Assembly: GCA_044892505.1 (NCBI GenBank)
Contig: CM097883.1
Location: 182,094,001 to 182,158,000, forward strand
Direction: 5' to 3'
Source: Schmidtea nova
Taxonomy: Eukaryota
Length of the DNA stretch: 64,000 nt
The notes under the pieces were generated by a model. The model searched no databases. It saw nothing but the letters and a program-made list of their open reading frames with translations, and had not been told where the DNA came from. Position 1 is the first letter of the stretch. Every line of letters begins with the position of its first letter. Below are positions 39,256 to 64,000 of this stretch, in pieces. The position numbers were made by a program, and so were the translations under genes.

Positions 39256-39299
39256 ATTGGTCAGTCTAGATCAGACTGATCAGTATAAATACTGATCAG
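39256..39299 (+). promoter_or_regulatory. Putative LTR promoter: inverted CCAAT (ATTGG) plus TATAAATA box
   Basis: The same arrangement lies ~370-395 bp from the LTR start in all three copies (TATA at 27397, 35710 on minus, 39284). Confidence 0.7.
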
Positions 39300-40703: not shown

Positions 40704-41019
40704 CTGAATCAATGGCCGCCTGTTTTTAAATTAAATAAATGTTTTAAAGAATTCTGAAATGTTCGTTTTGTTAATAGTGTTGTCATGTAGATTTAGTATT
40801 GTAGTTGTTATAGTCATTAGGAAATTCATTTATTAATATAAAATTAGTTCAATAAACCTTTTGAGTCTTCAATAATTAGATAGTTAAATAATTTTGCAAA
40901 GAAATCAATAATTAAAAACATTAGTATACATCTCGTTTAATAATAATAATAGTTGTTTAAATAAAATAACATTGTTGATAGGCCCTCCAGTGAATTTATC
41001 GTTATAATCTTCAGACAAC

Positions 41020-41604
41020 ATGCCGACTTCAGAAAATTCGAAGAAAATCATGGGACAAATTCAAGAGAGAAAGCTGAGGGACCAGCAGCGACAGATCAAG
41101 CGACTCACGGTCGCCAATGATGAATTGAAAGCGAAGTGGTTCTCGCCCGAACAGATGAAGGACCAGTCGAAAAAACTCGAGCGAGTGCAGGAAGCATTGG
41201 CTACAACCAAATTGGAACTGGATGCCGTCCAGCGAGAACTCCGAAATTGCCTGAACGCAGTAACAAGAAGTTACATCGACTCCGAATTGCGAGCGCTAAT
41301 TCGGCCGATCACGGCTCAGCGCTGGATACAATGCACTCACCAAGATGTCGCTTGCGGGACGGAAGAGGAAATCATCATGGCACCCACTCTTACAACGGAA
41401 GATTTGCCTATTTTTCCCAGCGATCCCCCGAGAACAATAGCGTCAGCACCGGCCACAAACCCACAGCTTCGAAAGCATCGAATGGGATCGCGACAGCGTC
41501 GTCGTCGCCGAGAATTTGCAAGGCGCCTGGACGAACAAATCCACCACCTGAACTCCTTAACCGAAGCAGAGTTAATCCAGGAGATTAGCCTGGAGTTTGA
41601 ATAG
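41020..41604 (+). CDS. LTR-encoded ORF B (194 aa): coiled coil plus Arg-rich motif
   Basis: Intact ORF, homologous to the ORFs at 29278 and 34096; contains RKHRMGSRQRRRRREFARR. Confidence 0.82.
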   Translation: MPTSENSKKIMGQIQERKLRDQQRQIKRLTVANDELKAKWFSPEQMKDQSKKLERVQEALATTKLELDAVQRELRNCLNAVTRSYIDSELRALIRPITAQRWIQCTHQDVACGTEEEIIMAPTLTTEDLPIFPSDPPRTIASAPATNPQLRKHRMGSRQRRRRREFARRLDEQIHHLNSLTEAELIQEISLEFE

Positions 41605-42137
41605 GAAAATCTCCATGTAACATAACAACCTGTCTTTATTATTTTAATAAAGTATTACTGTGTAAATTTTTTCTCTCATCGTGTGATTTCACTAAATAAA
41701 ATAAGACTACATAAGTAATTCGTAGAACTAAAAATCGCATCGTAAAACCTACACCGACCGTTACTTAGCAGCGAGAGTTTTCGTAGGCTTGTAGAACAGC
41801 GAGGGAGAGCGTCATTGGGAAAAGCGTGTGATAGATCATAAGGATATGTAGTATAAAATTCAGTAGGAAACGAACATCCATAGAATGTAAATGCGTAAGA
41901 CCTTCTATCGGCAGCAAGAACCCGAGGGAAGATAAATGGGGAGTAGTTTTGGCGACAAAGCTCACCTGCCCATCATTTTTCCACCACCGTATGCAGTACC
42001 AACTTGACTAGTAGGGAATAGTCAAGGGCATACGCGTGTAGTAGTCATGTTATGTATGGTTATGGGCGCGGAATCCCTAGTATGATTAATTGTTTATTTG
42101 TATTACTTAAAACCCACCCATAATCCCAGCATAAATT

Positions 42138-42156
42138 TGGGGGCTCAGCCGGGATC
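42138..42156 (+). promoter_or_regulatory. Primer-binding site, tRNA-Pro-like
   Basis: TGGGGGCTCAGCCGGGATC, 6 nt after the LTR end. It is complementary to a tRNA 3' end GATCCCGGCTGAGCCC-CCA and close to the canonical Pro PBS TGGGGGCTCGTCCGGGAT. Confidence 0.8.
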
Positions 42157-42484
42157 AACTTTGTTTTATGCGGAAAAGGTGAACCCAACGACAACAGAGA
42201 AATTTAAAATCAGAAGTTTGTGAGAAAAATAGTAACCGAATAAGTAATCGAGACGAAAGCGAGCTACGTGGAAATAGATCGTTATAAACAGAGAATCAAA
42301 TAAACTGAGTAAATAAAAACAACAACACAATGAAATAGATAAATTAAATAAATGCAATTATAAATAACAGGTCGGGACGACAATTTACCGAAACACGGGG
42401 GGAGGCTATAAAACTGTCAGAAACGAAACACAGTACTACTTTTCGAATAATATTAACACAGTGTTTAAATAAATTATCTAGGAA

Positions 42485-42946
42485 ATGGAGGAAAAACTGA
42501 AAGAAATCGAGGAATTTTTCAACACCAAGAACGATACATTTGAGACAGTCTGCGAAAAAATAACCCGAATAAGAGCATCCGAATATGAGGAACCTACGAC
42601 ACAAACTGAGGAAACAACTGAGTTAATAAAAATCATAGAGAAAGTAAATAAACTCGATATAAATACGCGATATAAATGGTACAAAGCACGATTAGAGGAT
42701 GCCGAGTTGAATATCAGATGCCGACATATAGAACAGCAGTTAAGCCTAACATATAACCGATGGACGTCGCAAGGGGTCGAGGCAGCAAAACAATATAAAC
42801 AATGTTACATATGCGAAAACAGTGAAATCCAAATAATGTTTTTACCATGTGGACATTTTCGATTCTGTAAAAACTGTGCGAATAAGTGTGATGAGTGCCC
42901 CATGTGCAATTTCTCTGTAGCTGATAAAATTGTAGTTTATTTATAA
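42485..42946 (+). CDS. Accessory protein with a C-terminal IAP/Mdm2-type C3HC4 RING (153 aa)
   Basis: CYICENSEIQIMFLPCGHFRFCKNCANKCDECPMCNFSVADKIVVYL* at the extreme C-terminus; no BIR domain seen. Confidence 0.88.
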   Translation: MEEKLKEIEEFFNTKNDTFETVCEKITRIRASEYEEPTTQTEETTELIKIIEKVNKLDINTRYKWYKARLEDAELNIRCRHIEQQLSLTYNRWTSQGVEAAKQYKQCYICENSEIQIMFLPCGHFRFCKNCANKCDECPMCNFSVADKIVVYL

Positions 42947-44062: not shown

Positions 44063-44612
44063 GTGATCGTCGACGATAATGAGAATAGTGCGCACCGATA
44101 ATAGAGAAATGCGAGTAAAGCTGATTATGCGACCTAAAATAATGCATGCAAGTAGAATCGAGAAATAGGAGCTGACCGGAAAGACCGGCAGAATTAATAA
44201 TTAGAGGCTAGCAGAGAGAAAGATAAAGAGATGAAAAAATAATAATCGAGTCAAATGACTCAGGGAATTAGAGCGTTCGAACGACAAATAAATTGGGAGA
44301 CCGCGGGAAAAATAATCGATGTATTTTAATAACCGATAGATAATTGTTATGACTAAATAGATAATTGTGACTAGTATATAGATAATTTAAATAGACTTAA
44401 ATAAAGGGGAATCTGGGAATGGGGAAAAATAATAGAAACCCAGTAATGAGAAGTCCCGTAAAAAGGGAATAAAAGCGCAACGATAACAATAGAGTATCGT
44501 TGAAGTGACATTTGTATTTTAGATAAATCAATCAAACCAAACCAATCAACTAAGGAAGAAAAGAATCGGAACACGATAAGACAGGAAAATTGAGTATACA
44601 AAAGTAATCCCG

Positions 44613-47489
44613 TTGAGAAAAGGAGAAAAGAGTGTCATAATAAAACCAGCAGAAAAGAATAAAGCTACCAAGAATAATAATCAGAAAGGCCCAAAAGGAA
44701 GTAAAGCAAGGCAGATAATAATACAAAAGTCGATTATCGAAAACGATAAATTATCAGTAACAAGCAACAGTTCAAGCAACAAAGAAAATCAAGCAGAACC
44801 CGAGAGAAACCCAATAAGTGAAATAGAAGTCGACAAAACCAACAACGATTATATAGAAGAAATAGAAGACGAAGTAGAACAAGAAACAGAAAGTGACGAT
44901 ACCGATAACGATAGTAAAGCATCAGATAACGAATCAGCAAAGGAAACTGAGATCGACCGAAATTCAAGTGACGAACCTAACAGTGAACTAGAAACAAGAG
45001 GAAACGAAAGTAAAATAACTACAGACAGCGGAATCGAAATGAGTGAACCAAGAGAAGAGATAAAAGACAAATTTTCCGGAGAACCGTTTAATGGAGATGC
45101 GAGTAAATTAGAAACTTTCTTAAAGGAATTTGGCATATTCGTGGAAGTATGCAAGTGGAAACCAGAAACAACTGTAAGCAGAATTCAGCTATATTTGAAA
45201 GATAGCGCATTAGATCTATATTTGGAAGCAAAGAATGGAACTAATCCACCTACAAGTTGGTCAGCGATAAAGGACTTTTTCCAACAAACCTTTGGAATAA
45301 ATAAAGTATTGAATGAGGCATTCACGGAATTCTCAATGAGGAAACAAAAGATAAATGAATCGAATGCGGTATATGCAAGCGAATTGAAAAAGTTAGCAAA
45401 GTTGATCTTTAATCAAGACAGCCCAATAAATGAGGAGTTAATGGCAGCTATCTTTGTGGGAGGATTAAGAAGACCCGACATAAGAGCGCAAGTTGGATGT
45501 CAAGGTTGTAAAACCATCGACCAAGCACTAGAAACAGCTAATAGATTTGAACTACACATGATAGGAAATGACGGTAGAATCTATTTAGCTATGGATACAG
45601 CACAAAACGAACAAGAAGTGAACCTGAATAACCACATTCCAAATTCACAACAATTAAACCGACCACCACCGCAACGAAGGAATGAAGGGAATAAAGTATC
45701 AAATTACGGAAATCAAAACAATTACAACCCCCAAGGACCAACGAAACAATGCAAAACATGTGGGAAATTGGGACATTGGCAACAAGAATGTTATCAGAAC
45801 TTGAATTGTGGAAAATGTGGAGTAAAAGGGCATTCAGAGAGCAGATGTTACACAATAACCTGTTTTAATTGTGGACGACCTGGACACCTATCAAGAAATT
45901 GCGGACAAAGAAGCAATCAACGAGGAAGCTGGCAGAATACCGGAAACCGACAAAACTATGGAAACCAACCAACTGGTGGAAACCGACAGAATTATGGAAA
46001 TCAGCCAAATAATGGAAACCAGCCGGAATACGGAAACCAACCAAATAGTAATAATAATAACCAAAATAAAAATACCACTAAAGAGATACATTTAATGCAA
46101 GAGGTTCAAAGATTGACGGAGCTGATAAACAATACAACCAGAGGAAATCCGCAAACAGGTCAACAACAAATCAATATGATGAGAAAAATAGAAAGCGAAA
46201 ACGAACGATTGAATCGGGAAAGTCAAGCACGACATGCTCAGGAATGGGCAAGAATACAAAGAGAAGAGGAACAAAAACAGCAAGAAAGAGAACGACAACC
46301 TCTAAGAATTAATATGATGAGAGCAACCAATCAAACAAATACCCACGAGAAAGAGACTGTACCAGAAATAAATCCAACAAACCCGAATCCAACCAACAAC
46401 GAAGGCCGAAAAGAGATAATACAAGAAGATGAAGAAGCAGAAAAAGAAACAGAAAAGGAAGTAGAAAAAGAAGGGAACCAAGAAGAGAAAAGGAAACTCG
46501 GGAAAAGAGGAATGATGGTAATTTTGCCAAACAAGCACGTGTTTCGATTCCAATATAACATAAAAGAAGAAGTAGAAATATTGTTCAATAAAGTGAATGA
46601 AATGGCTCCAGGAGTAACGAAACTGCCCAGAGAAGCATTCCTAAAAATAGAAGGTGCACCAGAAGTAAAATTGAAACTAACGGATACATGGGAAAACCTG
46701 GGAGTAGTAGAGACAAAAAGAAATGTGATGGTAATCAAGGAAATAGAACCAGAAGGAATTCCATCGCCAGTGCGTCACGAAACACGAATCAGTCGAATAT
46801 TTAAAGGGAAAATGATACGAAGACGGTTGGGAGAAATAGACGAGTTAGAACGAAAAATGAGAAAGGTCGGAGTAGTAGACGACAAGAGTGAATCAACACA
46901 AAAAGCTATTAAAAGTGAAACAAGACCAACGGAAAATACACCAAGTGAAATCAACCAAATAAAACACATTAACATGTTGAGAGGCCAGGCAAAGAAATTC
47001 TCAGATGACGAAGAGGATAGTGACGTCAGTAGTCTAGCCGGAGATATGCTAAACGAACCGGAAATTGAAGACAAAAAGATAGAAGTAGTAAAGACACCAG
47101 AAACTATTCAAGTAAAAGAGGACGAGATCCAGAAATTATTAGATAACGCGCTAGAAGTAATATATAATGAGGAATTCATCGACAAGAAACACTACCGGAA
47201 ATTCATGAGAGCAATATTACAAATGAACTATAAAGAGTGGTTACCAGGCCGGGAAGTAGAAACACTAAGCCAATACGTAGGAAAATTATTAAAAGAACCA
47301 CTCCATGAATATATAATACTAATAGAGATAAAAACATGTTTGCCAAGGATTTGGATCAAAACTCCACTCACGGAAGATATTTATCAATGGGTGGAAGACA
47401 GATTAGGGAGTTCATATAAAAACAAATTCCTCTATTCACAGAATGGACTAGTGAAGAAAAGGACGCATTTGATAGAAACAGGCATATGA
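44613..47489 (+). CDS. Gag part of the giant polyprotein: acidic N-terminal region, capsid-like domain, three CCHC knuckles, N/Q-rich and charged regions, start of a ubiquitin-like domain
   Basis: The frame is open from 44580 and the first in-frame ATG is 45039 (MSEPREE..PFNGD..LETFL..F); the true start is uncertain. Knuckles CKTCGKLGHWQQEC, CGKCGVKGHSESRC and CFNCGRPGHLSRNC lie at 45750-45902. Confidence 0.88.
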   Translation: MRKGEKSVIIKPAEKNKATKNNNQKGPKGSKARQIIIQKSIIENDKLSVTSNSSSNKENQAEPERNPISEIEVDKTNNDYIEEIEDEVEQETESDDTDNDSKASDNESAKETEIDRNSSDEPNSELETRGNESKITTDSGIEMSEPREEIKDKFSGEPFNGDASKLETFLKEFGIFVEVCKWKPETTVSRIQLYLKDSALDLYLEAKNGTNPPTSWSAIKDFFQQTFGINKVLNEAFTEFSMRKQKINESNAVYASELKKLAKLIFNQDSPINEELMAAIFVGGLRRPDIRAQVGCQGCKTIDQALETANRFELHMIGNDGRIYLAMDTAQNEQEVNLNNHIPNSQQLNRPPPQRRNEGNKVSNYGNQNNYNPQGPTKQCKTCGKLGHWQQECYQNLNCGKCGVKGHSESRCYTITCFNCGRPGHLSRNCGQRSNQRGSWQNTGNRQNYGNQPTGGNRQNYGNQPNNGNQPEYGNQPNSNNNNQNKNTTKEIHLMQEVQRLTELINNTTRGNPQTGQQQINMMRKIESENERLNRESQARHAQEWARIQREEEQKQQERERQPLRINMMRATNQTNTHEKETVPEINPTNPNPTNNEGRKEIIQEDEEAEKETEKEVEKEGNQEEKRKLGKRGMMVILPNKHVFRFQYNIKEEVEILFNKVNEMAPGVTKLPREAFLKIEGAPEVKLKLTDTWENLGVVETKRNVMVIKEIEPEGIPSPVRHETRISRIFKGKMIRRRLGEIDELERKMRKVGVVDDKSESTQKAIKSETRPTENTPSEINQIKHINMLRGQAKKFSDDEEDSDVSSLAGDMLNEPEIEDKKIEVVKTPETIQVKEDEIQKLLDNALEVIYNEEFIDKKHYRKFMRAILQMNYKEWLPGREVETLSQYVGKLLKEPLHEYIILIEIKTCLPRIWIKTPLTEDIYQWVEDRLGSSYKNKFLYSQNGLVKKRTHLIETGI

Positions 47490-50400
47490 CCAGGAGAGGT
47501 GACAACACTATCGATATGCGATGATAAGAGAGAAGAGAACCTACAAGAAGTAGCAAAGGAAGCAAATATGTGTTTCGAGAAGAAGATAAAACCACGGTTA
47601 GAATATGAGAAAGGACGAATCTTACGAGGAAATCTAAATTCCATGATAGAACAAATCATCCCACAAATCAAAAAACATAGAAAGGAGTTAATGAGAAGCG
47701 AATACGAAAAGTTGAAACGATGTATCGAATGCATACGTGACACAAGTCACACGAGATGGTCACAGATCTCATACGGAAAAGTAATTGCAAAAATGGGAAA
47801 AGCAATGTTCAGACAAGGGAAAATAACAGATCTGAAAATTGCAGTAGAGTTACCTAATGAGGATACCAAAGAAATTGAAGTGGTAGCAGATTGTACCATA
47901 AAAGAATTAGTAAATGTCATCAACGAGACACTATTACAAAGAGAACCAGAAGAAGAATGGGAAGATGACATAATCATGAAATACAACGAACATGTATTAT
48001 GGGATCACGATGAAAGACGGCTATATAAAATTGGTATATGGGATAATCACCAAACCATCCACGTTATCAGAATGGACGATACACCAAGAGAAACTGCTAA
48101 AGATGAGAAAAGAGAACGGGAACGAAAAAAAGAAGTTGTGCATAAATTACAACAAATAGTAGACATTTATCGAAATTGGCGGATTTGGCCAGAATGGGAA
48201 GACGTATTAGAAGAACTCAATCTCAACAGACGATTACCAACACCTGTAGAAAAACAATGGAACGAACGAGGAAAATGTTGGGAACCAAAAGCAGGCGAAT
48301 ACGAAGAGGAATACGGAATAGGCATAGAAGACGATCACAAACCGGAAACCGGAAGAGTCTGTATGGTAACAAGAAAAGCCATGCCAGCAGATTTAGACGG
48401 ACCAGAAACGACAACCATGTGGTTGGAAAGAGAAAAACAAAAAACGGAAGAATTTGTCGAAATATTAAAAACCAATGCGCACGGCAAGAGAAAAGTAGTA
48501 AAAGGTCTCGCAGATTTTTTCGTAGTTAATGGAGAAGACATAACATGCTTGCGTAAAGTAGCAAAAGCAATCGCCGAATACAAAAGAGTTAACGAGTGGT
48601 GTCCAGAACAATTGGATCACGTAATTAAAAAATGGAGAAACCAAGAATTCTCGCAGGAATCGCCACAGAAAGTACACCTAAGAATAGTATATCCGAACCA
48701 GGAAAAGGAAGAGTTTTGGGTAGGGATAGCGGAGAAAGTTCGAGACATTAAAAAGAAATTGAGATATGAACCACCATTCCATTTACAACACCAAGGACGA
48801 TCATTAGATAACAGCTTGGAAATTGGAATAACGCCAGCGCAATTAGATATCGCAAATACATTGACAGTGGCAGCAATAGCAGGCCAACCATTGAAATTGA
48901 AAGAGGAAAAGAAACCAAAGGGAAGTATGAGTACGCCGAGCCCAATGAAATCGGTAATGACTCCAGGAACAAGCTCAGAACAAGCTAGAACAACACCAAG
49001 AGATACAAGAGAAAGAACACCACCAGAACCATACGATGTAGACGAAATTTTTACAGATAGCGATGATATGTTAGAGGAGTTAATAGAGCTAACAAAAGAG
49101 AAAGATGATAATATTTTCGAAAGAATTCAAGAATTACCAACAGCAATACCGGTAACCAACACCGAAGATGAAGTTGAACAAGAAATAATCATCGAAGAAG
49201 TTAATGAAATAGCAGAAGAGGAAGCAAGGAGGGCAAATGTAGAAAATGTACAATTCACACAAGAAATGGAAAGATGGTTAGAAGAAAGAGCCAATGAACC
49301 AAGAGACGTTACAGAAGAAACTGGACGAGAAACAAGATTAGTAGAAACGGGCACGACAATGGATAAACGACCTAGAGGTAGACCCAAGATGGATCCAGCA
49401 AATGTAGTTATAAAATCAAGAGAGGAAAAAAGACGGGATCAATGGGATTTGTGTCTAAAGAAACTAAATAAAATAGCCGAAACGAAAGAAAAAGAAACAA
49501 CACAAACATACCAAGGCGAGGAATGGATATCAAAGATGTTAATGGAAATACTGGCAATAATCGATCCGGAATTAAAGAAATGGTGGAGAATAAACGAAAT
49601 AAGCGAAAGGGCGAAATCACTGCATAGCGCCATCGCACCAATCCTACCAGAACTAATAAAAGAGAAGACAAGGTCAAACCACCTAGATTGGCAAGGAACC
49701 ACGATGTTGATAAAGAAGTTAACGGAAGGAGCAGAGACGGATAACAAATATTTAATAGCTATAGCATACACCATCTACAATCTGCTGACACTGAGTAGAG
49801 GTCGACTGAAACCTACAGCACTCGAAAGACATATAAAGAATACAGCCAAAATTATAGAGAAAGAAATAGAACCGTACATCATCAGTAAAGGAGGATGGGA
49901 AACATTCACAAAAACGAACCAAAAGAAAAACCAAGCCAAAAATATGAAAAAGAAATTCGAAGAGATATTGGGAGAATTGGAAAAGGAAAAGTCGGGAACA
50001 GGAAACGGGAAATCATCACTAAACCTGAGTTCTATCATTATGATGATGTTAATATGGATGATTAGTACTGACGGAGCAACAGCATTTGAAGTATTCGATT
50101 GTGATCAAATGGCATTAGGTGAGAAATATTCACTACGAGGGACAGAACAATGTAAGGACGCAACCCCAACGGAGTTAAAAACATTAAAAAAGAGACAATT
50201 ATACCACGTATATCAGGAAGCTGAACTGATAAGAACAATGGTCAGGGAATGCAAAGTTTATAAAACCAGATTTGCTTTTTATTGTGGACACCGCCATTAT
50301 TCAGCAATCGTGATGCCAGGAACGGAAAGAGAATCGGTAATGCTGCAAGGAGAAGACTGTGAAAAATTATTTAAACATGGAGAAGTAGAGACTAGAGATA

Positions 50401-53400
50401 GAGTAAAGATAAGAGGAAAAACGGGAGTGATATTGCAACAAACATATTATGTAGCAGGAGCTATTACGGGAGGAGAAGGGTACTGCCAAGGAGCAACTTA
50501 TCCAATATTCGGAGTAGCAGCAACAAACCTAGTGGTAATAGATACGTATACAGTGGAACTAAAAACGTACGAGGCATTCTTCGATCCAACGACGGGAGAA
50601 ATGAAAACTCTACCTATGTGCAAAATCGAGTCAAACACTTGTCAGACTGGTATGTCAACCCTAACCTACCAGATACGAGGAAAGGAATGTCAACTACAAC
50701 TGTTAAAGGAAGCAGAATTCGATGAGATACAAGGGAAAACCTTCCAAGAGGAAGAAGAAGACGAGGCAGCAAGAGGAAAAATACTTCAAGACACAGTACG
50801 GGGAGAGAAAAAGATTGAAACCCGAACACAAGAAAAACAAATTAAAATGAGAAATACACCAACGGTACTAATTACCTCAGATGCAGATATCGGAATGAGG
50901 TTTGTAAAAGGAAAAACAGCCTTGAAATGCGGAGTAGCTATGTTGGAAACCAACTACCCCGGCATTTTTGTATCAAAACAAGAAGTACCTAGTGCGAAAC
51001 GCAAAGTGCACACGAACGATGTTAAATTACACCTTTACATGAACAATAAAATGGATTTTCTGTTCCATAGAGGACAAGCGTCACTACAAAAAGTGTATTA
51101 CGATTTAATTAACAACGATTGCATATTAAATAGGGAAATATTAAAGACAAAACTAGCGGTAGCAATCACAAACCCGGATAGTGCAATGCCATTATTACCA
51201 TTAAGAGAAGGTCATTTTGGAAGGGTAGTCGGAGAGGTCATGTACGTATACATATGTAAAAAGACAAATGCGAAGGTAGCGACAATGACAAAACTACAAC
51301 CAGGTCAGTGTACTAACGAACTAGAAATCGAATATAAAGGGAAAGTAAGATATGTACAACCAGTGACAAGAATCATAAATCCAATAAGCTTCGAACCAAA
51401 TCCTTTCAATTGCAGCAACGCATATGGACCACTATACCAAAAACCAGACGGAAATTGGGTTATGTTTCCGTCAAGAACAGAGGTACCAGCACCAAGGGAA
51501 TTTGAATTGATGCAACTATCAAAAGGACGAAAATTTAAAGACGTAGACGTAAGCAATATGGGATTCTATAACGCAAAGGATTTAGAAGCAGCAAGACAAA
51601 ACATACTATTTCCGGCAAGACGAGAAGCGGTGTTATCCAGTATTGTAACAATAACAGGAGGAACAAATTACCAAGGTGGACCAAATTACGAATTATTATT
51701 GTCACCAGCCCACTTTAAGAAGGCAACGGAAAACATGATGAAAGCGATGTGGGGAAGATTTTTAATATTTGGACAAATGATGGCAGGAATACTTGGTGTT
51801 ATACTAATTATACAAATAATACGGGTAATAATAACGCAAATGTTAGCCTGTTTTGACATCTATAAAAGAGAAAAGAAAGTAAATTGGAAATTGGTGGTAG
51901 GATTCTTACCATTTCTGGCTAAAACAATGGTATTACACGGTCATTCGAAAGATATTCACCGAATAAAGAGACTCCTAAAAATACTGGCAAAAATGAAAGG
52001 AACCGATGAAGAGGTGGGACGAAAGTTTAAAAAGATAATGAATAACGAGCAAGCAAGACAACAACTAAAGAAAGAGAGAAAAGGACTATGGGAAAGAATG
52101 AAAGGGTACAGAACCCAAGACGATTCCAGTGACGACGATGATGATGATAACGAAGGAGGTCAAGTATTTAAAAATCAAGTACCACAGTATGTCGAAAAGA
52201 ATCCAGCGGAAATGTGGAAATGTTACGCACCCCCACCGACCATGTACCAAGAACCAACACCAGGGATGAGACAAAATACAATGCAAATGATGCCGATGAC
52301 AAACATATATCCTATGATACCAGAAGACTATAGAACGAGACGGTGCAGAAGCGTAGATCCGCAAGGAGACTCACATACAATTGCAGTAATGTCATCAAAC
52401 ACCGGTCCAGTATTAACTACAACAATCGAAATTAACGGAAGGGAAATAGAAGCGATGATCGATACAGGAGCAAATATCTCAGCAATAGATATAAAATGGA
52501 TACCACAAGAACAAAGACGGGATATTGAGAGAACCAACGTTCACGTAATAGCATGCAGTAAAGAAGTAGTAGAAGTTGCCGGAAGATGGTGGGTAAAGAT
52601 AAAACATCAAAACACGGAAATCGAAACGTACGTAGCAGTAATACCAGCACTGAGCGTACCATGCATTATAGGTACGGATCTGATGCCAGCATTATTTAAA
52701 GAAATAGTTATTGACCTCGGAACAATGAGATTAAAGGATAGGACAGGACAGATATGCGCAATAGAAGCAAAAGTAACAAGTTCGAAACAAATAATCGTAC
52801 CAGCACGGAGAGAGAAAATATGTTTCGTAAAAATAGATCCTACAATAGAAGGTGACATGATCTTTGAACCCAGTAAAAGATTTGAAAAGAGAAAGTCGTT
52901 GCCAATGGCAAGGGGATTAGTGAGTGCGAATGACAACGGAGAAATCCCGATAAATGTAGTAAATTTCGATGAGGAGGATAAAATAATTTATGAAAATGAA
53001 AGATTAGGTAAACTAACTCCAATGATAGATATCGAAATACCAATAAAAGAAGGAGTAAAAGAGGAGGAACCCACTTGGAACATTAATAGCCAACTATTAA
53101 ATGAGGACCAAAAGAAACAGCTAGAAAGATTACTGATGGAATATAAAGACATATTCGCAGCATCCGATTTAGATTTAGGGACATGCGACGTCACACTACA
53201 TACGATTCCACTAACAGACGAAACGCCGATTGCGTTAAGACCATACAAGTTAGCTGAAGCGCAAAAATCAGTAGCAGAAGCAGAAGTACAGAAAATGCTA
53301 GACGCAGAAGTAATTGAACCAAGCTGCTCACCGTGGCAGTTCCCAGTTGTAATGGTGAAAAAGAAAGACGGAACACAACGATTTTGTATTGATTATCGGA

Positions 53401-56400
53401 GATTAAATGCAGTTACAAAAAGGGATACATACCCATTACCGGACATCAACGAGATGTTATTGACATTACAAGGAGCGGCATATTTTACATCATTGGATTT
53501 GAAAAGCGGATACTGGCAAATTAAAATGAAAGAGGAAGACAAAGAGAAAACTGCTTTCACTATCGGAAGAGACTTGTACCAATTTAGGAAAATGCCATTC
53601 GGACTAACCAATGCGCCAGCATCATTTCAAAGATGTATGAATTTCGTTACCCACGGCATAAAACAATGCATGGTTTACATTGACGACCTACTGATCTACT
53701 CAAGCACATTTGAACAACACATCCAAGATATCAGAGATGTATTTGTTAGATTGAGACAATGGAAACTCAAGCTCAAACCATCGAAATGCGATTGGGCAAA
53801 AGAGAAAGTGACATTCTTAGGACATATTGTGTCCGCAAAAGGAAAGGAACCAGATCCCAGAAACATTGATAAAGTAAAAGAATGTCCAGTACCAAAGACG
53901 ATAACGCAGATCCAAGAATTTCTCGGATTATGCGGTTACTATAGAAAATTCATAAAGGATTACGCAGGAATTGCAAAACCAATCCAGGAGCTAGTAAAGA
54001 AAGACGTATCGTTCATATGGGGAAGCGAACAACAAACAGCCTTCGAAACATTACGAGATAAGTTAATAACTGCACCAATATTGGTTCACCCGGATTTTAA
54101 AAAGCCATTCTTACTCGCAACCGACGCAAGTGGATATGCAGCAGGAGCAGTGTTAGGACAATATGATGACGAGGGAAAAGAGCGGGTAATCGGATATTAT
54201 AGCAGAACATTCAAGAAACACGAGAAGAATTATTCAGTAACGGAAAGAGAAGCATTGGCAATAATATTAGCAATAAAACACTTTAAATATCTATTATGGG
54301 GACACATTATATGCATAACCACAGACCATCAACCACTTGTATGGCTAGGACAACATAAGGAAACATCCAGCAGATTAATGAGATGGGCGATGCAATTACA
54401 AGAATATTCACCAGATATAAAATTCAAATCAGGAAAAGCGAATGCCAACGCAGATTGTATGTCAAGATTAACGTTTCCAGAACTAACAGACCCAGAAGTG
54501 CAAAGAATATGCATAATGATAGCAGAGGACTTGGATTTCAGTGAGTTAAAGAAAGATCAGCAAGAGGATAAAGAACTAAAACCCATCATAGAATTTCTAA
54601 GCTCACGAAATATGGATGTATTCGAAGACAATGCGGAGTTAAAAGAACACATGAGGAAATACCAACACCGATACACAATAGAAAAAGGATGGTTGTTAAT
54701 ACAAGATGGAGAAAAACGATTAATGTGTCTGCCAAGTAATAGACGAAAAGAGATAATAACTCAATACCATGACGGAAAGCTAGGAGGACACATGTCCTCT
54801 AAGAAAACATTAGATCGTATGAGACAGAAATATTATTGGCCAACAATGGACGAAGACGTAAAGGAATGGATAAAGAACTGTTTAACTTGTGCCACAAGAA
54901 AGGATAGTGGGAAGAAATGGAAAAATCCCTTAAAACCCATGCCAATACCAGCGGAACCAATGACTACCATTGCGATGGATGTAATAGGACCATTGCCAGA
55001 AAGTTTAAACGGGAATCAATATATATTGGTAATAACGGATTATTTGACTAAATTCCCTGAAGCATTTGCGATGCCGGATCAAAAAGCAAAGACGGTAGCA
55101 AGAATTTTAGTAGAGGAAATATGTTGTCGATACGGAACCCCGAAACAAATACTAACAGATCAAGGAACAAATTTTATGAGCGAAATACTAGATGAAGTAA
55201 CAAATTACTTCAGAATAGCCAAATTACGAACGTCACCATATCATCCGCAAACCAACGGGCAAACGGAAAGATTTAACGGCACATTGATTCGAATGTTATC
55301 CAATTATGTAAGCAAACACCAAACAGATTGGGATGAATACGTAAAGCTATGTCTAATGGCATACCGAATGTCGATACACGCAGCAACAAAATTGAGTCCA
55401 TTTCAATTAATGTATGGAAGGGAATGCAATATGCCAATAGATCTTGAATATCAACCACCTTTGTCTCAATATATGGAGGAAGATGATTACGTCACCAAAT
55501 TCAAAGAACGAATGCAAGAGATATGGAAGACAGCAGAACTAAACATAAAGTTTTATCAAGAAAGTTACAAGGACCTACACGATCAAAAGAAAAATGTTAA
55601 AACAAATGATCTTAAACCCGGAGATTGGGTAATGATAGAAACCCCAGAAATAATACCAGGAACCGTTAAAAAACTACAAAGACCAGGAAAAGGCCCTTAC
55701 GAAGTTATATACAAAAAGGAAAACAATGTGAAGGTAAAACTTGTTAATCGACCATTGATACGACCAATATACGTTAATACATGCAGATGTAAAAAAGTAC
55801 CAAAGACAATAACCACAGCGCCAGAAGAACGAATAATAACCAGATCCCAGACAGCCAGAATGAATATGCTCAGAGCAACCAATGAAAGTACCGAAGCAGA
55901 GAACAATCAACGAGGAAAAAGAAACAAGGAAATTGTACTAAAAGCCAGAGAAATAATGGGAAAATGGCATGTCAGAGACGATATATTAAGAGATATTCAG
56001 TCGATAATTAGTGATTACGCAAGGGGACTACCAACAAAACCAGTCATTTCAGAACTACTGGAAAAGATTCCAGAAATACTTTCACTAGAAGACATAGGAG
56101 GACAACCAGCATTACATAACGCCATAAAATGGGGAGAAGTAGAGAGAGTAAAAGAATTTCTAAAAATCGCTAAGGAAACAAACCAACACCTTGGTTTTGG
56201 GAATAGCGAACAAGAAACACCATTAATGGTAGCAGCCATCTACAAATCGGATAAAGCAATAATAGACCTTTTGATAAATGCCGATTTCAACTGGACGGAA
56301 CGCGATAGAGAAAACAAAACAGTCTTGAATCACGCAATATGGAGCTCAAATCAGATAATGCTCAAACAAATAATCGAGAAGGCCACTTGGGAAATAGACG

Positions 56401-59400
56401 AACTGATCAAAGGTGATATAATCAAGGAGGCAATAAAAATCGGTAACTGCAAAACAATACGCAAGCTAATAAAATGGAAAAGATCCGAAAATGATACATG
56501 GGTGTTAAATATAAACGAGGTATACAGTGAAGGGCAAAACACGTTATTACAATTCCTATTAAAATTCGTTTGTGACCAGAAAGCACTGTTAACGTTATTA
56601 GACAGAAGAAATATCATAATTTCCAAAAACAAAGAGGAGTGTAAATTCGAAAGTGAAAAAGAAGCATTATTCAGGAAAATTAGGGAATGGTGTGCAAAAT
56701 CGCTAACCAAGACGATAACTTACAAAGATATATCCAATTTTCAAGATAAATACAAAACGGTGGAGGAAGAGTATGACAAACTAATAGACATATTAAACCA
56801 CCCCGAAAAATGCAAACAATTCCTATGTCAAAAGGAAAGAGAAAGCAAAAGGAAAGTTACACCACTTTTCAGCGCAGAGGTACCATATCAAGAAAGGTTA
56901 GATGCGATACAGGACAAAGCAAAAGAACTATTACCAGAATTCGAAAATTCTAAACATACACTGGAGATACTCGGATCAATTGTGGAAAAGGTACACGCAT
57001 ATGCGGAAGGAACTTACAATGAAAACGATATGATGATCATAAAAAGAGAAATGCCAGTGACTTTCTTATTAACAAAGAATGGAGTATTGCCAATACATAG
57101 AGCCTTACGAGCAGGAAAAAATAGGAGGGTAGTCGAAATTGCACGGTTGATGCAAGATTGCGGAAGTGACATGAACATGAAAGATAAAAAGGGAGACACC
57201 CTCATGATATTTGCAGCAAGAGCGAACACAAAAACCCGAGTGTTACAGGAACTGTACGAAGTAGGTGCAGGACTCATGGGAAGAACTAACAAAGACAGCT
57301 CAATACTAGACGTAGCGTTGTTAACGTACAATTGGGAGGTGATAAATTTTATAAAAACAATCACAAATCAGGAGGAAATAGAATACCTTACAAGGAGAGT
57401 TAAAAAAGCTAGCGTACATTCCATGATGCATAACGCTGAACTAACTGAAGTAATACTCAATTGGATGAACCCAAACACCAATGAACCAGCATTCAGGATC
57501 AACGAGTGCATGGAACAAGGCCAGAATTTATATATAAAGTGTGCATTAATAATAAACAAATGGCCAAACATAATAGACATCTTCATGAGAAGAAAAGATT
57601 TACGATTCACAAACAACCCAAAGGAAACAGAACGTACGGACAAATGGAAAGAACTAATGAAAACGTACCTTAATAATTGGATAAAAGCCAAGAAAGAGAT
57701 TCTAGATTGTAAATTAACCGATAAGGAAATACCTAAGCAGGCAGTAACACAAGAATATGAAGCAAGTATACTCACAACCATAACGTATGAAAAAATGATA
57801 GAAGCAATTAATGTCGAGGACGACATTTTCAACGACCAAAGGGGAGGCGACAATACAGGAAACGACGACGATAGTACTCGAGAAAATCCAGAGGATCATG
57901 AGTTACTAGATAAAGAGGACAGTGAAGAGAAAGGAAGGGACACAGAGAAAAATGATAAGAAAAATGAATTTGGGAAACAAAGAAACAACAACTATAAAAA
58001 TAAAAACGAAGTAAAAAGAACAGGCTACAAACAAACAATAAACCCATTCTTTAAACCAGAACTATTATTACTAACGATAATCATGACCTTAATTAGTCCC
58101 ACTCAAGGAATGATATGTGAAGAAAGAGCGACAATACAAATTGGAAACGCAAAAGGAATCGAACGAGTATGTTGGTCAAAAAAGGACAAAATCTCGGGAC
58201 AAAATAGTCCAATGGATTGCAGGATCTCAGAATACGAACAAGAAATCATAGAGATCGATGACCTAGAGCTAGATACTTGGTACAGAATGTGCACCGTTCG
58301 GAAACCAAAGGATCCGAGATCACATAAGACAATTGCATGTGCAAATTACCTAACACCCAAAGTAACCATAACAGTACAGCAGTCATCCAAAGGAGACTAT
58401 GTCGTAGGAAAGTGTGGAAGAACAGAGACACAAGGAACAAAAAACAAGAAACCTCAGACAATAGACAGACGAACAACGCCAACTATACAAATTACCATAG
58501 ACAGGCCCGAAGTAAGAGTAACCACAAATGAAACTGAAAGAGTGACCTACCAAACAGAATTACTATGTTTAGCACTCATATTAACAATGTTAAAACGGTT
58601 AGAAGAAGGGATAGACATTGACACAATGGCAGTAACAGAGATGAACGACACCCAAAACACCAACCCAAAGTGTTGGGCCAGAAGCAACGAAGAAATTGGC
58701 GTAAGCGAAATAAAGACGAGTCGGAAAAGGAAAACAAATAAAGTAACCAAGATATCAGAAGTAAAAGCAGACAGGACGTATGAACTATGTTTACTAGAAA
58801 AAGAAAGACACAAGAAAGGAACGACAATTTGTAAAACATTTCAACCTGGGGAAACAATAAAGTTCATACGACGAGGAAGAAGAAATAAACGCACCAAACG
58901 GAGAACAACTATAATGTTAGAGTTAACCGGAATAGAACCGGACGTCAAAGGCGTATGCTGGAAGAAGCAGGAAAAGAAAACAAACCAGAATACACCGCCG
59001 CAATGTCGAACAAACAGAGGAACAACCACAATACAGATAGAAGGGTTAGAAAGTAATCAAACGTACGAAATATGCCTGATCAGGAAGAGCGACAAAATAA
59101 CAGTAAATGAACTGGAATGCAAAATATATAAAACACCCACCGGAACAAGAATTGGAAAGACAACGCGAAAAAGCAGAAGACAACGGAACAAAGGAAAAAC
59201 GAGGTATACCACTACTTTTAAACCTAATGGACAACAGAAAAACCAAGAAATACAAATAAAAACCGAAAAGAATACTACAGCAACTCTTATACTATGGAGA
59301 ATAGACAATAAAACGTTAGAAATATGTTGGGCAGTAGTCCAGGAACAAAAAGAAAGACAGCCACGATACTGCGAAAACGTAAAAGGAAAAGAAGAAATGA

Positions 59401-60002
59401 GTATCAAAAATCTGAAATTTAATAGAGAATACGAGATATGTGCGGTAGAAAAGACGGACATATTAGGAAATCAGCAGGAAAAATGCGAAACGTACTACAC
59501 ACCGGTAAACTCAACGTCCAAAGGGAAAGTGAGAAAACTCGAATTTAAAGAATTAAGTCAGACAACGAAACAAATGGACGCGGAACAAATAGTAATAGAC
59601 CCTTACGCAAGATGGACGCCGGAAGAAGTAATTAAAGAAGTTAAAAGAAAACAACAAGAACGAGAACAACTACTAAATAAACTAAAGGGACAATATGGAC
59701 CAATGATTAACCAGAGTGAAATTACGAAGATGGACGTAAACAAACAAGTTAGAGAACTAATTGGTCTAGGAATACTAGCAGCAACTATTCCAGTAATAAC
59801 AGTATTATTAATAATATGGATATATGATGTATTCAACAAGAAACCAATAACACATTGGCCAGATATAAAGATTATGAACTACAGTATAGAATTACCGGAA
59901 GAAGTACATAAAGAATTCCAAAGGGGGACGAAAGGTAAAGAATTTTGGAGACAAATAGAAGATGAAGAGCGATACGAAGGAAAGACAGTGATGGTGATAT
60001 AG
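47490..60002 (+). CDS. Polyprotein continuing the gag frame: Ubl domains, AT-hook, Bcl-2-like domain, signal peptide + chuvirus-like glycoprotein + TM, PR, RT, RNase H, integrase, ankyrin repeats, signal peptide + 4 FN3-like repeats + TM
   Basis: PR IDTG at 52461; RT LDLKSGYWQ and YIDD at 53676; RH TDAS; IN H-H-C-C, DDE and GPY. Glycoprotein ~50085-51855; BH2-like YIISKGGWETF at 49875-49907; ankyrin-like repeats ~56090-57340. Confidence 0.93.
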   Translation, partial: PGEVTTLSICDDKREENLQEVAKEANMCFEKKIKPRLEYEKGRILRGNLNSMIEQIIPQIKKHRKELMRSEYEKLKRCIECIRDTSHTRWSQISYGKVIAKMGKAMFRQGKITDLKIAVELPNEDTKEIEVVADCTIKELVNVINETLLQREPEEEWEDDIIMKYNEHVLWDHDERRLYKIGIWDNHQTIHVIRMDDTPRETAKDEKRERERKKEVVHKLQQIVDIYRNWRIWPEWEDVLEELNLNRRLPTPVEKQWNERGKCWEPKAGEYEEEYGIGIEDDHKPETGRVCMVTRKAMPADLDGPETTTMWLEREKQKTEEFVEILKTNAHGKRKVVKGLADFFVVNGEDITCLRKVAKAIAEYKRVNEWCPEQLDHVIKKWRNQEFSQESPQKVHLRIVYPNQEKEEFWVGIAEKVRDIKKKLRYEPPFHLQHQGRSLDNSLEIGITPAQLDIANTLTVAAIAGQPLKLKEEKKPKGSMSTPSPMKSVMTPGTSSEQARTTPRDTRERTPPEPYDVDEIFTDSDDMLEELIELTKEKDDNIFERIQELPTAIPVTNTEDEVEQEIIIEEVNEIAEEEARRANVENVQFTQEMERWLEERANEPRDVTEETGRETRLVETGTTMDKRPRGRPKMDPANVVIKSREEKRRDQWDLCLKKLNKIAETKEKETTQTYQGEEWISKMLMEILAIIDPELKKWWRINEISERAKSLHSAIAPILPELIKEKTRSNHLDWQGTTMLIKKLTEGAETDNKYLIAIAYTIYNLLTLSRGRLKPTALERHIKNTAKIIEKEIEPYIISKGGWETFTKTNQKKNQAKNMKKKFEEILGELEKEKSGTGNGKSSLNLSSIIMMMLIWMISTDGATAFEVFDCDQMALGEKYSLRGTEQCKDATPTELKTLKKRQLYHVYQEAELIRTMVRECKVYKTRFAFYCGHRHYSAIVMPGTERESVMLQGEDCEKLFKHGEVETRDRVKIRGKTGVILQQTYYVAGAITGGEGYCQGATYPIFGVAATNLVVIDTYTVELKTYEAFFDPTTGEMKTLPMCKIESNTCQTGMSTLTYQIRGKECQLQLLKEAEFDEIQGKTFQEEEEDEAARGKILQDTVRGEKKIETRTQEKQIKMRNTPTVLITSDADIGMRFVKGKTALKCGVAMLETNYPGIFVSKQEVPSAKRKVHTNDVKLHLYMNNKMDFLFHRGQASLQKVYYDLINNDCILNREILKTKLAVAITNPDSAMPLLPLREGHFGRVVGEVMYVYICKKTNAKVATMTKLQPGQCTNELEIEYKGKVRYVQPVTRIINPISFEPNPFNCSNAYGPLYQKPDGNWVMFPSRTEVPAPREFELMQLSKGRKFKDVDVSNMGFYNAKDLEAARQNILFPARREAVLSSIVTITGGTNYQGGPNYELLLSPAHFKKATENMMKAMWGRFLIFGQMMAGILGVILIIQIIRVIITQMLACFDIYKREKKVNWKLVVGFLPFLAKTMVLHGHSKDIHRIKRLLKILAKMKGTDEEVGRKFKKIMNNEQARQQLKKERKGLWERMKGYRTQDDSSDDDDDDNEGGQVFKNQVPQYVEKNPAEMWKCYAPPPTMYQEPTPGMRQNTMQMMPMTNIYPMIPEDYRTRRCRSVDPQGDSHTIAVMSSNTGPVLTTTIEINGREIEAMIDTGANISAIDIKWIPQEQRRDIERTNVHVIACSKEVVEVAGRWWVKIKHQNTEIETYVAVIPALSVPCIIGTDLMPALFKEIVIDLGTMRLKDRTGQICAIEAKVTSSKQIIVPARREKICFVKIDPTIEGDMIFEPSKRFEKRKSLPMARGLVSANDNGEIPINVVNFDEEDKIIYENERLGKLTPMIDIEIPIKEGVKEEEPTWNINSQLLNEDQKKQLERLLMEYKDIFAASDLDLGTCDVTLHTIPLTDETPIALRPYKLAEAQKSVAEAEVQKMLDAEVIEPSCSPWQFPVVMVKKKDGTQRFCIDYRRLNAVTKRDTYPLPDINEMLLTLQGAAYFTSLDLKSGYWQIKMKEEDKEKTAFTIGRDLYQFRKMPFGLTNAPASFQRCMNFVTHGIKQCMVYIDDLLIYSSTFEQHIQDIRDVFVRLRQWKLKLKPSKCDWAKEKVTFLGHIVSAKGKEPDPRNIDKVKECPVPKTITQIQEFLGLCGYYRKFIKDYAGIAKPIQELVKKDVSFIWGSEQQTAFETLRDKLITAPILVHPDFKKPFLLATDASGYAAGAVLGQYDDEGKERVIGYYSRTFKKHEKNYSVTEREALAIILAIKHFKYLLWGHIICITTDHQPLVWLGQHKETSSRLMRWAMQLQEYSPDIKFKSGKANANADCMSRLTFPELTDPEVQRICIMIAEDLDFSELKKDQQEDKELKPIIEFLSSRNMDVFEDNAELKEHMRKYQHRYTIEKGWLLIQDGEKRLMCLPSNRRKEIITQYHDGKLGGHMSSKKTLDRMRQKYYWPTMDEDVKEWIKNCLTCATRKDSGKKWKNPLKPMPIPAEPMTTIAMDVIGPLPESLNGNQYILVITDYLTKFPEAFAMPDQKAKTVARILVEEICCRYGTPKQILTDQGTNFMSEILDEVTNYFRIAKLRTSPYHPQTNGQTERFNGTLIRMLSNYVSKHQTDWDEYVKLCLMAYRMSIHAATKLSPFQLMYGRECNMPIDLEYQPPLSQYMEEDDYVTKFKERMQEIWKTAELNIKFYQESYKDLHDQKKNVKTNDLKPGDWVMIETPEIIPGTVKKLQRPGKGPYEVIYKKENNVKVKLVNRPLIRPIYVNTCRCKKVPKTITTAPEERIITRSQTARMNMLRATNESTEAENNQRGKRNKEIVLKAREIMGKWHVRDDILRDIQSIISDYARGLPTKPVISELLEKIPEILSLEDIGGQPALHNAIKWGEVERVKEFLKIAKETNQHLGFGNSEQETPLMVAAIYKSDKAIIDLLINADFNWTERDRENKTVLNHAIWSSNQIMLKQIIEKATWEIDELIKGDIIKEAIKIGNCKTIRKLIKWKRSENDTWVLNINEVYSEGQNTLLQFLLKFVCDQKALLTLLDRRNIIISKNKEECKFESEKEALFRKIREWCAKSLTKTITYKDISNFQDKYKTVEEEYDKLIDILNHPEKCKQFLCQKERESKRKVTPLFSAEVPYQERLDAIQDKAKELLPEFENSKHTLEILGSIVEKVHAYAEGTYNENDMMIIKREMPVTFLLTKNGVLPIHRALRAGKNRRVVEIARLMQDCGSDMNMKDKKGDTLMIFAARANTKTRVLQELYEVGAGLMGRTNKDSSILDVALLTYNWEVINFIKTITNQEEIEYLTRRVKKASVHSMMHNAELTEVILNWMNPNTNEPAFRINECMEQGQNLYIKCALIINKWPNIIDIFMRRKDLRFTNNPKETERTDKWKELMKTYLNNWIKAKKEILDCKLTDKEIPKQAVTQEYEASILTTITYEKMIEAINVEDDIFNDQRGGDNTGNDDDSTRENPEDHELLDKEDSEEKGRDTEKNDKKNEFGKQRNNNYKNKNEVKRTGYKQTINPFFKPELLLLTIIMTLISPTQGMICEERATIQIGNAKGIERVCWSKKDKISGQNSPMDCRISEYEQEIIEIDDLELDTWYRMCTVRKPKDPRSHKTIACANYLTPKVTITVQQSSKGDYVVGKCGRTETQGTKNKKPQTIDRRTTPTIQITIDRPEVRVTTNETERVTYQTELLCLALILTMLKRLEEGIDIDTMAVTEMNDTQNTNPKCWARSNEEIGVSEIKTSRKRKTNKVTKISEVKADRTYELCLLEKERHKKGTTICKTFQPGETIKFIRRGRRNKRTKRRTTIMLELTGIEPDVKGVCWKKQEKKTNQNTPPQCRTNRGTTTIQIEGLESNQTYEICLIRKSDKITVNELECKIYKTPTGTRIGKTTRKSRRQRNKGKTRYTTTFKPNGQQKNQEIQIKTEKNTTATLILWRIDNKTLEICWAVVQEQKERQPRYCENVKGKEEMSIKNLKFNREYEICAVEKTDILGNQQEKCETYYTPVNSTSKGKVRKLEFKELSQTTKQMDAEQIVIDPYARWTPEEVIKEVKRKQQEREQLLNKLKGQYGPMINQSEITKMDVNKQVRELIGLGILAATIPVITVLLIIWIYDVFNKKPITHWPDIKIMNYSIELPEEVHKEFQRGTKGKEFWRQIEDEERYEGKTVMVI

Positions 60003-60575: not shown

Positions 60576-61958
60576 ATGAATACAGAAGGAAAAGCCGAAG
60601 AGCGGATAATCGAAATTTTGAGAGCCGAGAACAGGAAATGGAGTCAGAGACTCACTTGTGTAAATTGTAAAAACATAATATTGAAACCAAGACAAACCCT
60701 ATGCGGATGCAGAGTATGTACCAAATGCATACACGAGTTAAGTATGAAAAGACCACCAGAATGTCCAGAATGCAAAGAAGGACAAATAAAATTCGAAGAA
60801 ACCGGACCAGATAGAGCAACTCAGAGAGAAATCATGAACACGAAAACCGAATGTATAAATCAACCATGTATATGGCAAGGACAAATACGCGATCTCGAGA
60901 ACCATCTGGAGAACTGCGAGGAGAAGAGAACCGAATGTAACAAATGCCAACAAAAAATAACTATAAAGAATAAAGAGCAGCACAAAGATGAATGCAAAGA
61001 AGAGGAAAGTCTATGCGAATATTGTGGAACTCGAGAAACGAGGAGAAAGATCGAGGAAGAACACCTGAATGTAAAAGAGGAGAAAGTATGTAGACAATAT
61101 GTAGGAATATGTTCAAACGAATGCGAGATAACGGCAGAAGTAAAATTACAAGAACATTGGAAAATGTGCACGGAGAAACCAAGGGAATGCCCTTATAACA
61201 AACAGGGATGTATGGAGAAAAGAACGCAAAAAACCATGAAACAACATCTGGAGGAAGCATTGCTAAAGCATGCGGAAATGACAAACGAAGCAACAAAAGA
61301 AACCGAACAAACAATCAAAAAATTAGAAAGAGAAATAGAGTCACACAAGATAATGGTAAACCTACTGTTGGAAACCAGAGAGCAATTCGAACTAACACGA
61401 GAAAAGATGGAGGAAAAGATAAAAGCTATCGAAGAATTGGCTAAAGGAATGAAAATCCAGTACAACAAACTCACCCAGGATACCGAAGAAAAGTTACCAA
61501 TCGCACCATATGTGTGGAAAGTGACAGATTTTAGAAACAAATTAACAGAGGCCAGAAATATGACGAAAACAGCAGTAATAAGCCCACCATTTTATTTATG
61601 GAGAAACGGAGCTAAAGTGAGATTGAAGCTATACCCAAATGGAGACGGAAGAGGACGAGGAACACATGTGTCAATATTTTTCTCGCTATGTAAAGGAGAA
61701 TACGACGACCTAGTAGAATGGCCCTTGAAAGTAGGAGTCATTGTAAGAATCAGAAGTGTAACAAAACCAGTGGAAAAATTCTTTGAGACAGAGAAACATG
61801 CGAGTACGAGCGAGAAACCAACCACAGAATGCGGATTAGCAGCGGGAGAACCGATGTTTATAACGAAAGAAAGCCTATGGGAACGATTATATGCAGACAC
61901 CCTATACATAGAAATGGAAAGGAATGAGAAAGCAGATAGAAAAGGATGGCTGACGTAA
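60576..61958 (+). CDS. TRAF-like protein (RING, TRAF zinc fingers, coiled coil, MATH), 460 aa
   Basis: CVNC..PRQTLCGCRVC..C..CPEC RING; C..QPC.W.G...L..H...C finger; MATH motifs WKV.DF, SPPFY, LYPNGDG.G.GTHVS.F, EWP. Confidence 0.92.
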   Translation: MNTEGKAEERIIEILRAENRKWSQRLTCVNCKNIILKPRQTLCGCRVCTKCIHELSMKRPPECPECKEGQIKFEETGPDRATQREIMNTKTECINQPCIWQGQIRDLENHLENCEEKRTECNKCQQKITIKNKEQHKDECKEEESLCEYCGTRETRRKIEEEHLNVKEEKVCRQYVGICSNECEITAEVKLQEHWKMCTEKPRECPYNKQGCMEKRTQKTMKQHLEEALLKHAEMTNEATKETEQTIKKLEREIESHKIMVNLLLETREQFELTREKMEEKIKAIEELAKGMKIQYNKLTQDTEEKLPIAPYVWKVTDFRNKLTEARNMTKTAVISPPFYLWRNGAKVRLKLYPNGDGRGRGTHVSIFFSLCKGEYDDLVEWPLKVGVIVRIRSVTKPVEKFFETEKHASTSEKPTTECGLAAGEPMFITKESLWERLYADTLYIEMERNEKADRKGWLT

Positions 61959-63991: not shown

Positions 63992-64000
63992 TGTTGGGCC
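63992..64000 (+). repeat. Start of the 3' LTR (truncated by the window)
   Basis: TGTTGGGCC is identical to 38889-38897 and comes after the last internal ORF. Only 9 bp are visible. Confidence 0.7.

Follow-up and report, generated by a model that had tools for sequence, protein, structure and literature searches.

Organization of the element

The 64,000-nucleotide stretch analyzed here (the window; Schmidtea nova assembly GCA_044892505.1, CM097883.1:182,094,001-182,158,000, in whose own numbering positions are given) contains a 28,346 bp Ty3/gypsy long terminal repeat (LTR) retrotransposon, with protease, reverse transcriptase (RT), RNase H and integrase in the gypsy order according to Pfam. 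Its central feature is a very long frame, with a RING open reading frame (ORF) upstream and a TRAF ORF downstream (Table 1), in which Pfam places CCHC, Monjiviricetes_fusion, aspartic protease, RT, RNase H, integrase and ankyrin domains in one reading frame; the ankyrins are followed by a cassette of predicted signal peptide, FN3-fold repeats and predicted membrane helix. The family frame of 5,140 residues is likely translated as one polyprotein, which probably threads in and out of the endoplasmic reticulum (ER).

In the window copy the frame (44580-60002) is parted by an in-frame stop (47487-47489) into 969 and 4,170 codons. A DNA search of the same genome, in which 40 of 480 candidates were scored and 30 loci fetched (the window copy included), found a sense codon at this place in all 29 other copies, and programmed read-through at 47487 was rejected because the stop is private to the window copy. 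The long polyprotein is a property of the family; the window copy is damaged and cannot make it in full. A protein search with FN3 repeats 2-4 (129 of 2,102 candidates scored; open-frame counts tallied from figures copied by hand) showed that 33 of 86 close copies (rows of at least 85% identity) have open frames of 5,060 codons or more, 5,140 in most, and that in a sister family 7 of 43 rows reach 5,600 codons or more. The 5' and 3' LTRs are 100% identical, yet the copy differs by ~1% from its closest relatives and carries the stop codon, as expected of a defective copy that was likely mobilized recently by the proteins of other copies. This 28-kb retrotransposon family has been spreading recently, and the stop codon has broken the copy in the window.

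Table 1. Features of the S. nova element (window positions).
Feature	Position	Strand	Remarks
5' LTR	38889..42131	+	3,243 bp, TG...CA ends, 4-bp target-site duplication
Primer-binding-site-like 18-mer	42138..42155	+	six bases past 5' LTR
Accessory ORF, RING finger at C-terminus	42482..42946	+	zf-C3HC4_3 E 2.3e-11
Long frame part 1: Gag capsid, CCHC knuckles, low-complexity spacer	44580..47486	+	first ATG 45039
In-frame stop	47487..47489	+	private to window copy
One or two weakly supported ubiquitin-like domains	47700..48902	+	Pfam; 65-92% identical in sister families
Bcl-2-like domain	49383..49961	+	end ~43 residues ahead of signal 1 hydrophobic core
Signal 1, predicted internal signal peptide	50019..50084	+	hydropathy; predicted mature Env start 50085
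Env ectodomain, Monjiviricetes/gB-type fusion protein	50085..51750	+	Pfam PF24664 E 1.5e-67
Env transmembrane helix (predicted)	51777..51839	+	hydropathy, alignment
Weaker hydrophobic stretch in Env tail, conserved	51879..51935	+	hydropathy, alignment
Pol: protease, 120-residue insert, RT, RNase H, integrase	52377..55856	+	Pfam
Ankyrin repeats, then acidic linker	55857..58040	+	Ank_2 E 2.7e-12
Signal 2, predicted internal signal peptide	58050..58109	+	hydropathy, alignment; predicted mature start 58110
Four FN3-fold repeats	58110..59513	+	~58122-58361, 58611-58862, 58893-59141, 59268-59513
Hydrophobic 11-residue segment between FN3 repeats 1 and 2	58560..58592	+	conserved; two basic residues after
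Stalk with two N-glycosylation sequons	59508..59717	+	Asn at 59508 and 59709
Second transmembrane helix (predicted)	59757..59825	+	then 57-residue tail to stop at 60002
Accessory TRAF-like ORF (zinc fingers, MATH)	60576..61958	+	MATH_2 E 5.3e-21, zf-TRAF
3' LTR start	63992..64000	+	continues 3,234 bases past window end

A first-pass annotation of the window had read Gag, ubiquitin-like and Bcl-2 parts, Env, Pol and a second membrane protein with an FN3-like ectodomain as a single frame. Pfam and profile searches bear out the order, but in this copy the stop interrupts the frame. The capsid region matches Retrotrans_gag (E 9e-05). A six-sequence profile of the Bcl-2-like region (49383-49961) matched Bax (E 0.0013), Bcl-xL and BOK in the PDB at E 0.001-0.005, supporting that assignment; Pfam by itself reached Bcl-2 at E 0.12 only, and the ESM Atlas gave no Bcl-2 match. 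The ubiquitin-like part is weak in comparison, with Ubiquitin_4 at E 0.12 for 47700-48101 and no ubiquitin-like match in Pfam for 48600-48902. The Bcl-2-like BH2 motif lies ~43 residues N-terminal of the signal 1 core, where Bcl-2 proteins normally carry their tail anchor.

The env gene lies upstream of the protease, between gag and pol. Its product is of gB/Monjiviricetes type (PF24664) with 14 Cys invariant in seven aligned rows, and its profile found no solved relative by sequence. We take PF24664 to be the gB type of fusogen, a view that also draws on a likeness seen by eye to rows in the accessible part of PMC13524379. The 120-residue insert between protease and RT has no Pfam match and sits at the place of a published dUTPase-like domain.

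Predicted signals and membrane helices

A fixed hydrophobicity threshold is passed by five 11-mers in 5,140 residues, at 50031, 51780, 58062, 58560 and 59793. Four hydrophobic segments identified by hydropathy (50031-50063, 51777-51833, 58062-58094 and 59760-59825) coincide with the places where the first-pass annotation had put signal 1, the Env helix, signal 2 and the last helix; it had not listed the fifth 11-mer, 58560-58592 in the second ectodomain, or the weaker stretch at 51879-51935, which we infer to be interfacial, not membrane-spanning. The flanking charges fit, weakly, a cytosolic N-side of signals 1 and 2 and a cytosolic C-side of the Env helix, and are uninformative for 58560-58592 and the last helix.

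The FN3 cassette after the integrase

The four repeats of the second ectodomain align with one another and share a Trp that is invariant in 23 rows and corresponds to the strand-B Trp that, with a strand-F Tyr, marks FN3 domains. Fifteen Cys of the cassette are invariant in five rows from four families, and both stalk sequons are kept in all five aligned rows, one of them with a varying middle residue. A model of repeat 3 built from 23 rows, the only repeat folded alone, has a predicted local distance difference test score (pLDDT) of 82.7, and its best structural match among 48,161 chains is an FN3 domain of L1CAM (Z 7.7, root-mean-square deviation 2.6, 77 aligned), a Z under 8 being modest and able to reflect a common fold arrangement. 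Nearly all 50 rows of this comparison are FN3 domains. The Pfam match to fn3 reaches only E 0.022, the ESM Atlas gives FN3 at 0.86-0.89 as a lead, and these two and the PDB profile all point to FN3. A single-sequence fold of the whole ectodomain is poor (pLDDT 38), and its Foldseek matches to tandem FN3 domains are likewise a lead only. The modeling thus supports FN3-fold repeats in the second membrane protein, with the fold upheld for one repeat.

No homologue of the cassette was found among 7,999 candidates, among 1.84 billion representatives or in the PDB by sequence, collections that are poor in animal transposon proteins, so that the empty result does not prove the cassette rare. Long relatives were also searched for; the 118 proteins returned were generic gypsy Pol, and PF24664 was absent from all of them.

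Conservation across families

The comparison took in five other families: three RT-bearing sister families, an RT-less one and a distant one (~3,400 codons, four elements, Env 35% and RT 54% identical). Gag, signal 1, Env, a helix and then protease occur in one frame in all five. At signal 1, the aligned hydrophobic core, small residues at -3/-1 and the same Env start are seen by eye in all seven rows of an alignment (A2) that includes two outside records, which carry the signal at 35-36% identity. Signal 2, the segment at 58560-58592 and the last helix are kept in all five rows of the cassette alignment (A1; four families, two rows near-identical), with cassette identity of 39-66%, and the short core and small -3/-1 residues of signal 2 are seen by eye in 5/5 rows and in both distant copies. 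The distant family has no ankyrins, and its integrase is followed by a signal-like segment, a beta-rich, sequon-rich region and a C-terminal helix (2/2 by eye).

Two families depart from the common plan. In the sister family with frames of 5,641-5,685 codons (L113, L115, L124, L125) the signal-FN3-helix cassette is present twice with a short linker between, and three membrane proteins are predicted. The RT-less family shares one common in-frame deletion of ~3 kb (RT, RNase H and integrase gone; 5/5 copies checked), and retains Gag, the Bcl-2-like domain, Env, protease, ankyrins and the FN3 cassette. The five checked copies have frames of 4,113-4,118 codons and are 96-98% identical to their RT-bearing relative; frames of this type, 4,108-4,140 codons, occur in 11 of 142 search rows. 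Examples of this non-autonomous family are C1:47174501-47191400 (L119, L120) and L126-L129.

Between the window copy and the sister families, the ratio of nonsynonymous to synonymous substitution rates (dN/dS) was computed for Env (0.04-0.08), RT plus integrase (0.01-0.02), the ankyrins (0.07-0.11), the acidic linker (0.25-0.30) and the FN3 cassette (0.15-0.48), with dS near saturation and several values not computable. Among 29 near-identical copies the corresponding polymorphism ratio (pN/pS) is 0.33-0.39 over most of the cassette, and one copy of the 29 has a stop in the linker. By dN/dS the FN3 cassette and the acidic linker appear to be under purifying selection.

Proposed topology and processing

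In flavivirus, alphavirus and hepacivirus polyproteins, signal peptidase cuts internal signals, each signal stays as an anchor on the protein upstream, and a viral protease cuts the cytosolic junctions. The proteins are unrelated to those described here and the analogy is one of mechanism only. We consider it fairly probable, from the predicted segments and their conservation, that the long frame is handled in a similar manner, with internal signals starting and helices stopping its passage through the ER membrane and with signal peptidase and the element protease cutting it. The polyprotein would enter the ER at signals 1 and 2 and leave it at the two predicted membrane helices. Cuts by host signal peptidase would release Env and the FN3 protein at their N-termini, and both would be type I glycoproteins. 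Cut signal 1 would remain as a C-terminal anchor on the precursor that runs from Gag to the Bcl-2-like domain, in the place of a Bcl-2 tail anchor, and cut signal 2 would do the same for the ankyrin protein. Pol would form a loop on the cytosolic side, held to the membrane by both of its ends until excised by the element protease, and Gag and Pol would meet at the ER face via their anchors and not through a Gag-Pol fusion. On the particle or cell surface, the FN3 protein would most likely serve the fusogen as a partner in attachment or adhesion.

Several observations weigh against this topology. The signals and helices are predictions from hydropathy, with the -3/-1 residues read by eye in alignments. 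The weaker stretch at 51879-51935 is conserved, and Pol would be luminal if it crossed the membrane. The signals and anchors that the first-pass annotation had drawn do recur in diverged families, with the frame open across the junctions, but signal 2 of the distant family falls below the hydrophobicity threshold; the signal of the duplicated cassette has no small residue at -3, and one outside record (P0120) stops after the Env tail, without a protease. A motif of one pattern is found at the protease, RNase H/integrase and integrase/ankyrin borders, but it was picked post hoc, its strict matches (5/5 cytosolic) are compatible with chance given that ~77% of the chain is predicted to be cytosolic, and of the 15 loose matches 3 are luminal. 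The near-saturation of dS limits the selection estimates, and pN/pS among the 29 near-identical copies comes close to 1 in the linker and in signal 2, where sites are few.

A further point against it is the Met at position -29 relative to signal 1, which all four close families share and which makes an Env-only message possible. The frame could be continuous while Env, the FN3 protein or both come mainly from spliced or subgenomic messages, as with other errantivirus env genes, and carry ordinary N-terminal signals; the 1:1:1 Gag:Env:Pol ratio implied by a single polyprotein would moreover be unusual among LTR elements. We regard separate messages as unlikely. There is no Met within 89 residues N-terminal of signal 2 in any of seven first cassettes, and the Met ahead of signal 1 is not shared by the distant family, which has one at -5 in one copy and at -51 in the other. 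The parts are never separated by stops in any family examined, the linker appears to be under purifying selection, and a crude scan of the 300 bases ahead of each signal turned up no acceptor rich in pyrimidines. No GT..AG joint was seen among the 14 listed, with contigs from two of four runs of unspecified kind covering the stretch throughout, which is uninformative on splicing.

The segment at 58560-58592 also counts against the proposed topology, being as hydrophobic as signal 2, kept in 5/5 rows and in the duplicated cassette, and followed by two basic residues in the manner of a stop-transfer sequence. Were it a short stop-transfer, repeat 1 would be luminal, repeats 2-4 cytosolic and the last helix reversed, or both forms might coexist. 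This seems improbable to us: the segment has just 11 hydrophobic residues and is absent from the distant family, and three crossings per cassette would invert the topology of the duplicated one. The conserved sequons and paired Cys downstream of it favor luminal repeats 2-4, and argue against its being a permanent stop-transfer. As it resembles signal 2, it may be a relic of an earlier duplication.

Signal 2 might instead be an uncleaved signal-anchor. The ankyrins and FN3 repeats would then be joined in a single receptor-like protein crossing the membrane twice, which signals in the host cell or blocks signaling there. The ankyrins with their acidic tail and the TRAF, RING and Bcl-2-like parts do suggest control of host signaling, and the duplicated signal is without a textbook cut site. 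The short core and small -3/-1 residues of signal 2, however, speak for a cleaved signal in every row and distant copy read by eye, and the distant family carries the cassette without ankyrins, which leaves this arrangement rather improbable as well.

Returning to the polyprotein cut at both signals, a wider reading is possible but is offered tentatively, as we hold it to be doubtful. Burro-like elements would be enveloped, and Pol would lie between two surface glycoproteins: a fusogen of gB type and, for attachment, an FN3 protein which families lengthen or duplicate. Pol would be packaged via membrane anchors, the cut signals would anchor the Bcl-2-like and ankyrin proteins in the ER, and the RT-less satellites would keep both glycoproteins and borrow Pol.

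Relationships to known elements

The closest described elements are Burro/GYPSM1 and a Dugesia tigrina Burro-like element, which according to the accessible text of PMC6431247 are likewise giant gypsy elements with one long frame; theirs contains Gag-CCHC, Ubl/SUMO-like and BCL2-like domains, an in-frame env, protease, RT, RNase H and integrase, ankyrins, and MATH/TRAF in the frame or in an accessory ORF. In the same text, planarian Burro has env in frame between gag and pol within frames of 4,873 and 5,140 aa and is called the first such case; signal peptides, membrane helices and an FN3 cassette do not appear in that portion of the description. The S. nova element has the Burro-like layout, with BCL2-like, env and protease in frame, ankyrins after the integrase, and MATH/TRAF, and its family has the size of the Burro-like giants (25-30 kb, ~5,000-codon frame), the frame being broken in the window copy. 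It differs from Burro in that TRAF is downstream, a RING ORF is upstream and there is no BIR domain (none in Pfam scans of plus-strand ORFs). Lacking BIR, it is filed as Burro-like and not with Burro1-4 of Schmidtea mediterranea, compared by description. Burro1 is expressed, and a 2026 study of its IAP-like product is cited (accessible text of PMC8532177 and PMC13465017).

GAG-ENV-POL errantiviruses whose Env is of the HSV/gB type (HSV, herpes simplex virus) are described from Platyhelminthes, Nematoda and Bryozoa in the available portion of PMC13524379, and share with our family the gene order, the gB-type Env and multi-copy intact elements. Their Env ectodomain lies between a signal and a helix or between two helices, and the Env of Smed_errantivirus_1 closely resembles by eye that of the distant 3,400-aa family (same source). 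The architecture, together with this likeness, points to a probable planarian host. The main text of that paper, so far as accessible, is without the words "polyprotein", "fused" and "ankyrin" and mentions no second membrane protein. LTRs, a primer-site-like 18-mer and several near-identical copies are all present here, as in this class.

The Atlas belpaovirus, in the accessible part of PMC9094657, also has one Gag-Pol-Env polyprotein and two tandem membrane glycoproteins, with predicted cleavage sites placed as in phleboviruses. It differs in that both glycoproteins are C-terminal, class II and Gn/Gc-like, that Pol is not flanked by membrane proteins, and that it belongs to BEL/Pao, not gypsy. 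The first-pass annotation knew no retroelement precedent for the layout; this was mistaken for the Gag/Env/Pol order (PMC6431247 and PMC13524379, as far as accessible) and for a polyprotein with two membrane glycoproteins (PMC9094657, likewise), and may still hold for a membrane FN3 cassette after the integrase. The literature covered contained neither an FN3 membrane protein after integrase nor a two-signal topology, the primary Burro and nematode papers lying outside that coverage and no search having been aimed at fibronectin plus retrotransposon. The gene order is thus known, and the second membrane cassette and its predicted topology, well supported by comparison, appear to be new within this limited coverage.

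In the published annotation of these giant elements, roughly half of the polyprotein is without an explanation. Families ranging from 3,400 aa to 5,700 aa keep a layout in which a second membrane protein follows the integrase. This suggests that the gB-type fusogen has a partner in receptor binding or adhesion, and that Pol is packaged otherwise than through Gag-Pol fusion. The predicted N-termini and glycosylation sites give exact targets for proteomics in the host.

Accessory genes and neighboring sequences

The primer-binding-site-like 18-mer at 42138..42155 may resemble a tRNA-Pro primer site. The leader ahead of gag contains tandem repeats (43419-44080) with units of 30/31 and 42-55 bases. 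Two ORFs lie within the 3.2-kb LTR, at 40173-40703 (176 codons) and 41008-41604 (198 codons), and match no Pfam family. Three more accessory ORFs, at 60125-60484, 62048-63133 and 63206-63787, have no useful Pfam match; the second has a counterpart in a sister family and the third shows a hydrophobic stretch by eye. An accessory ORF of the distant family (L105:4350-5801), without a Pfam match, resembles a DEDDh exonuclease by eye. Elsewhere in the window, positions 1-2331 hold a DNA polymerase B fragment of the protein-primed type, which has an endonuclease VII domain, and 24204-25610 a separate retroelement fragment bearing an integrase.

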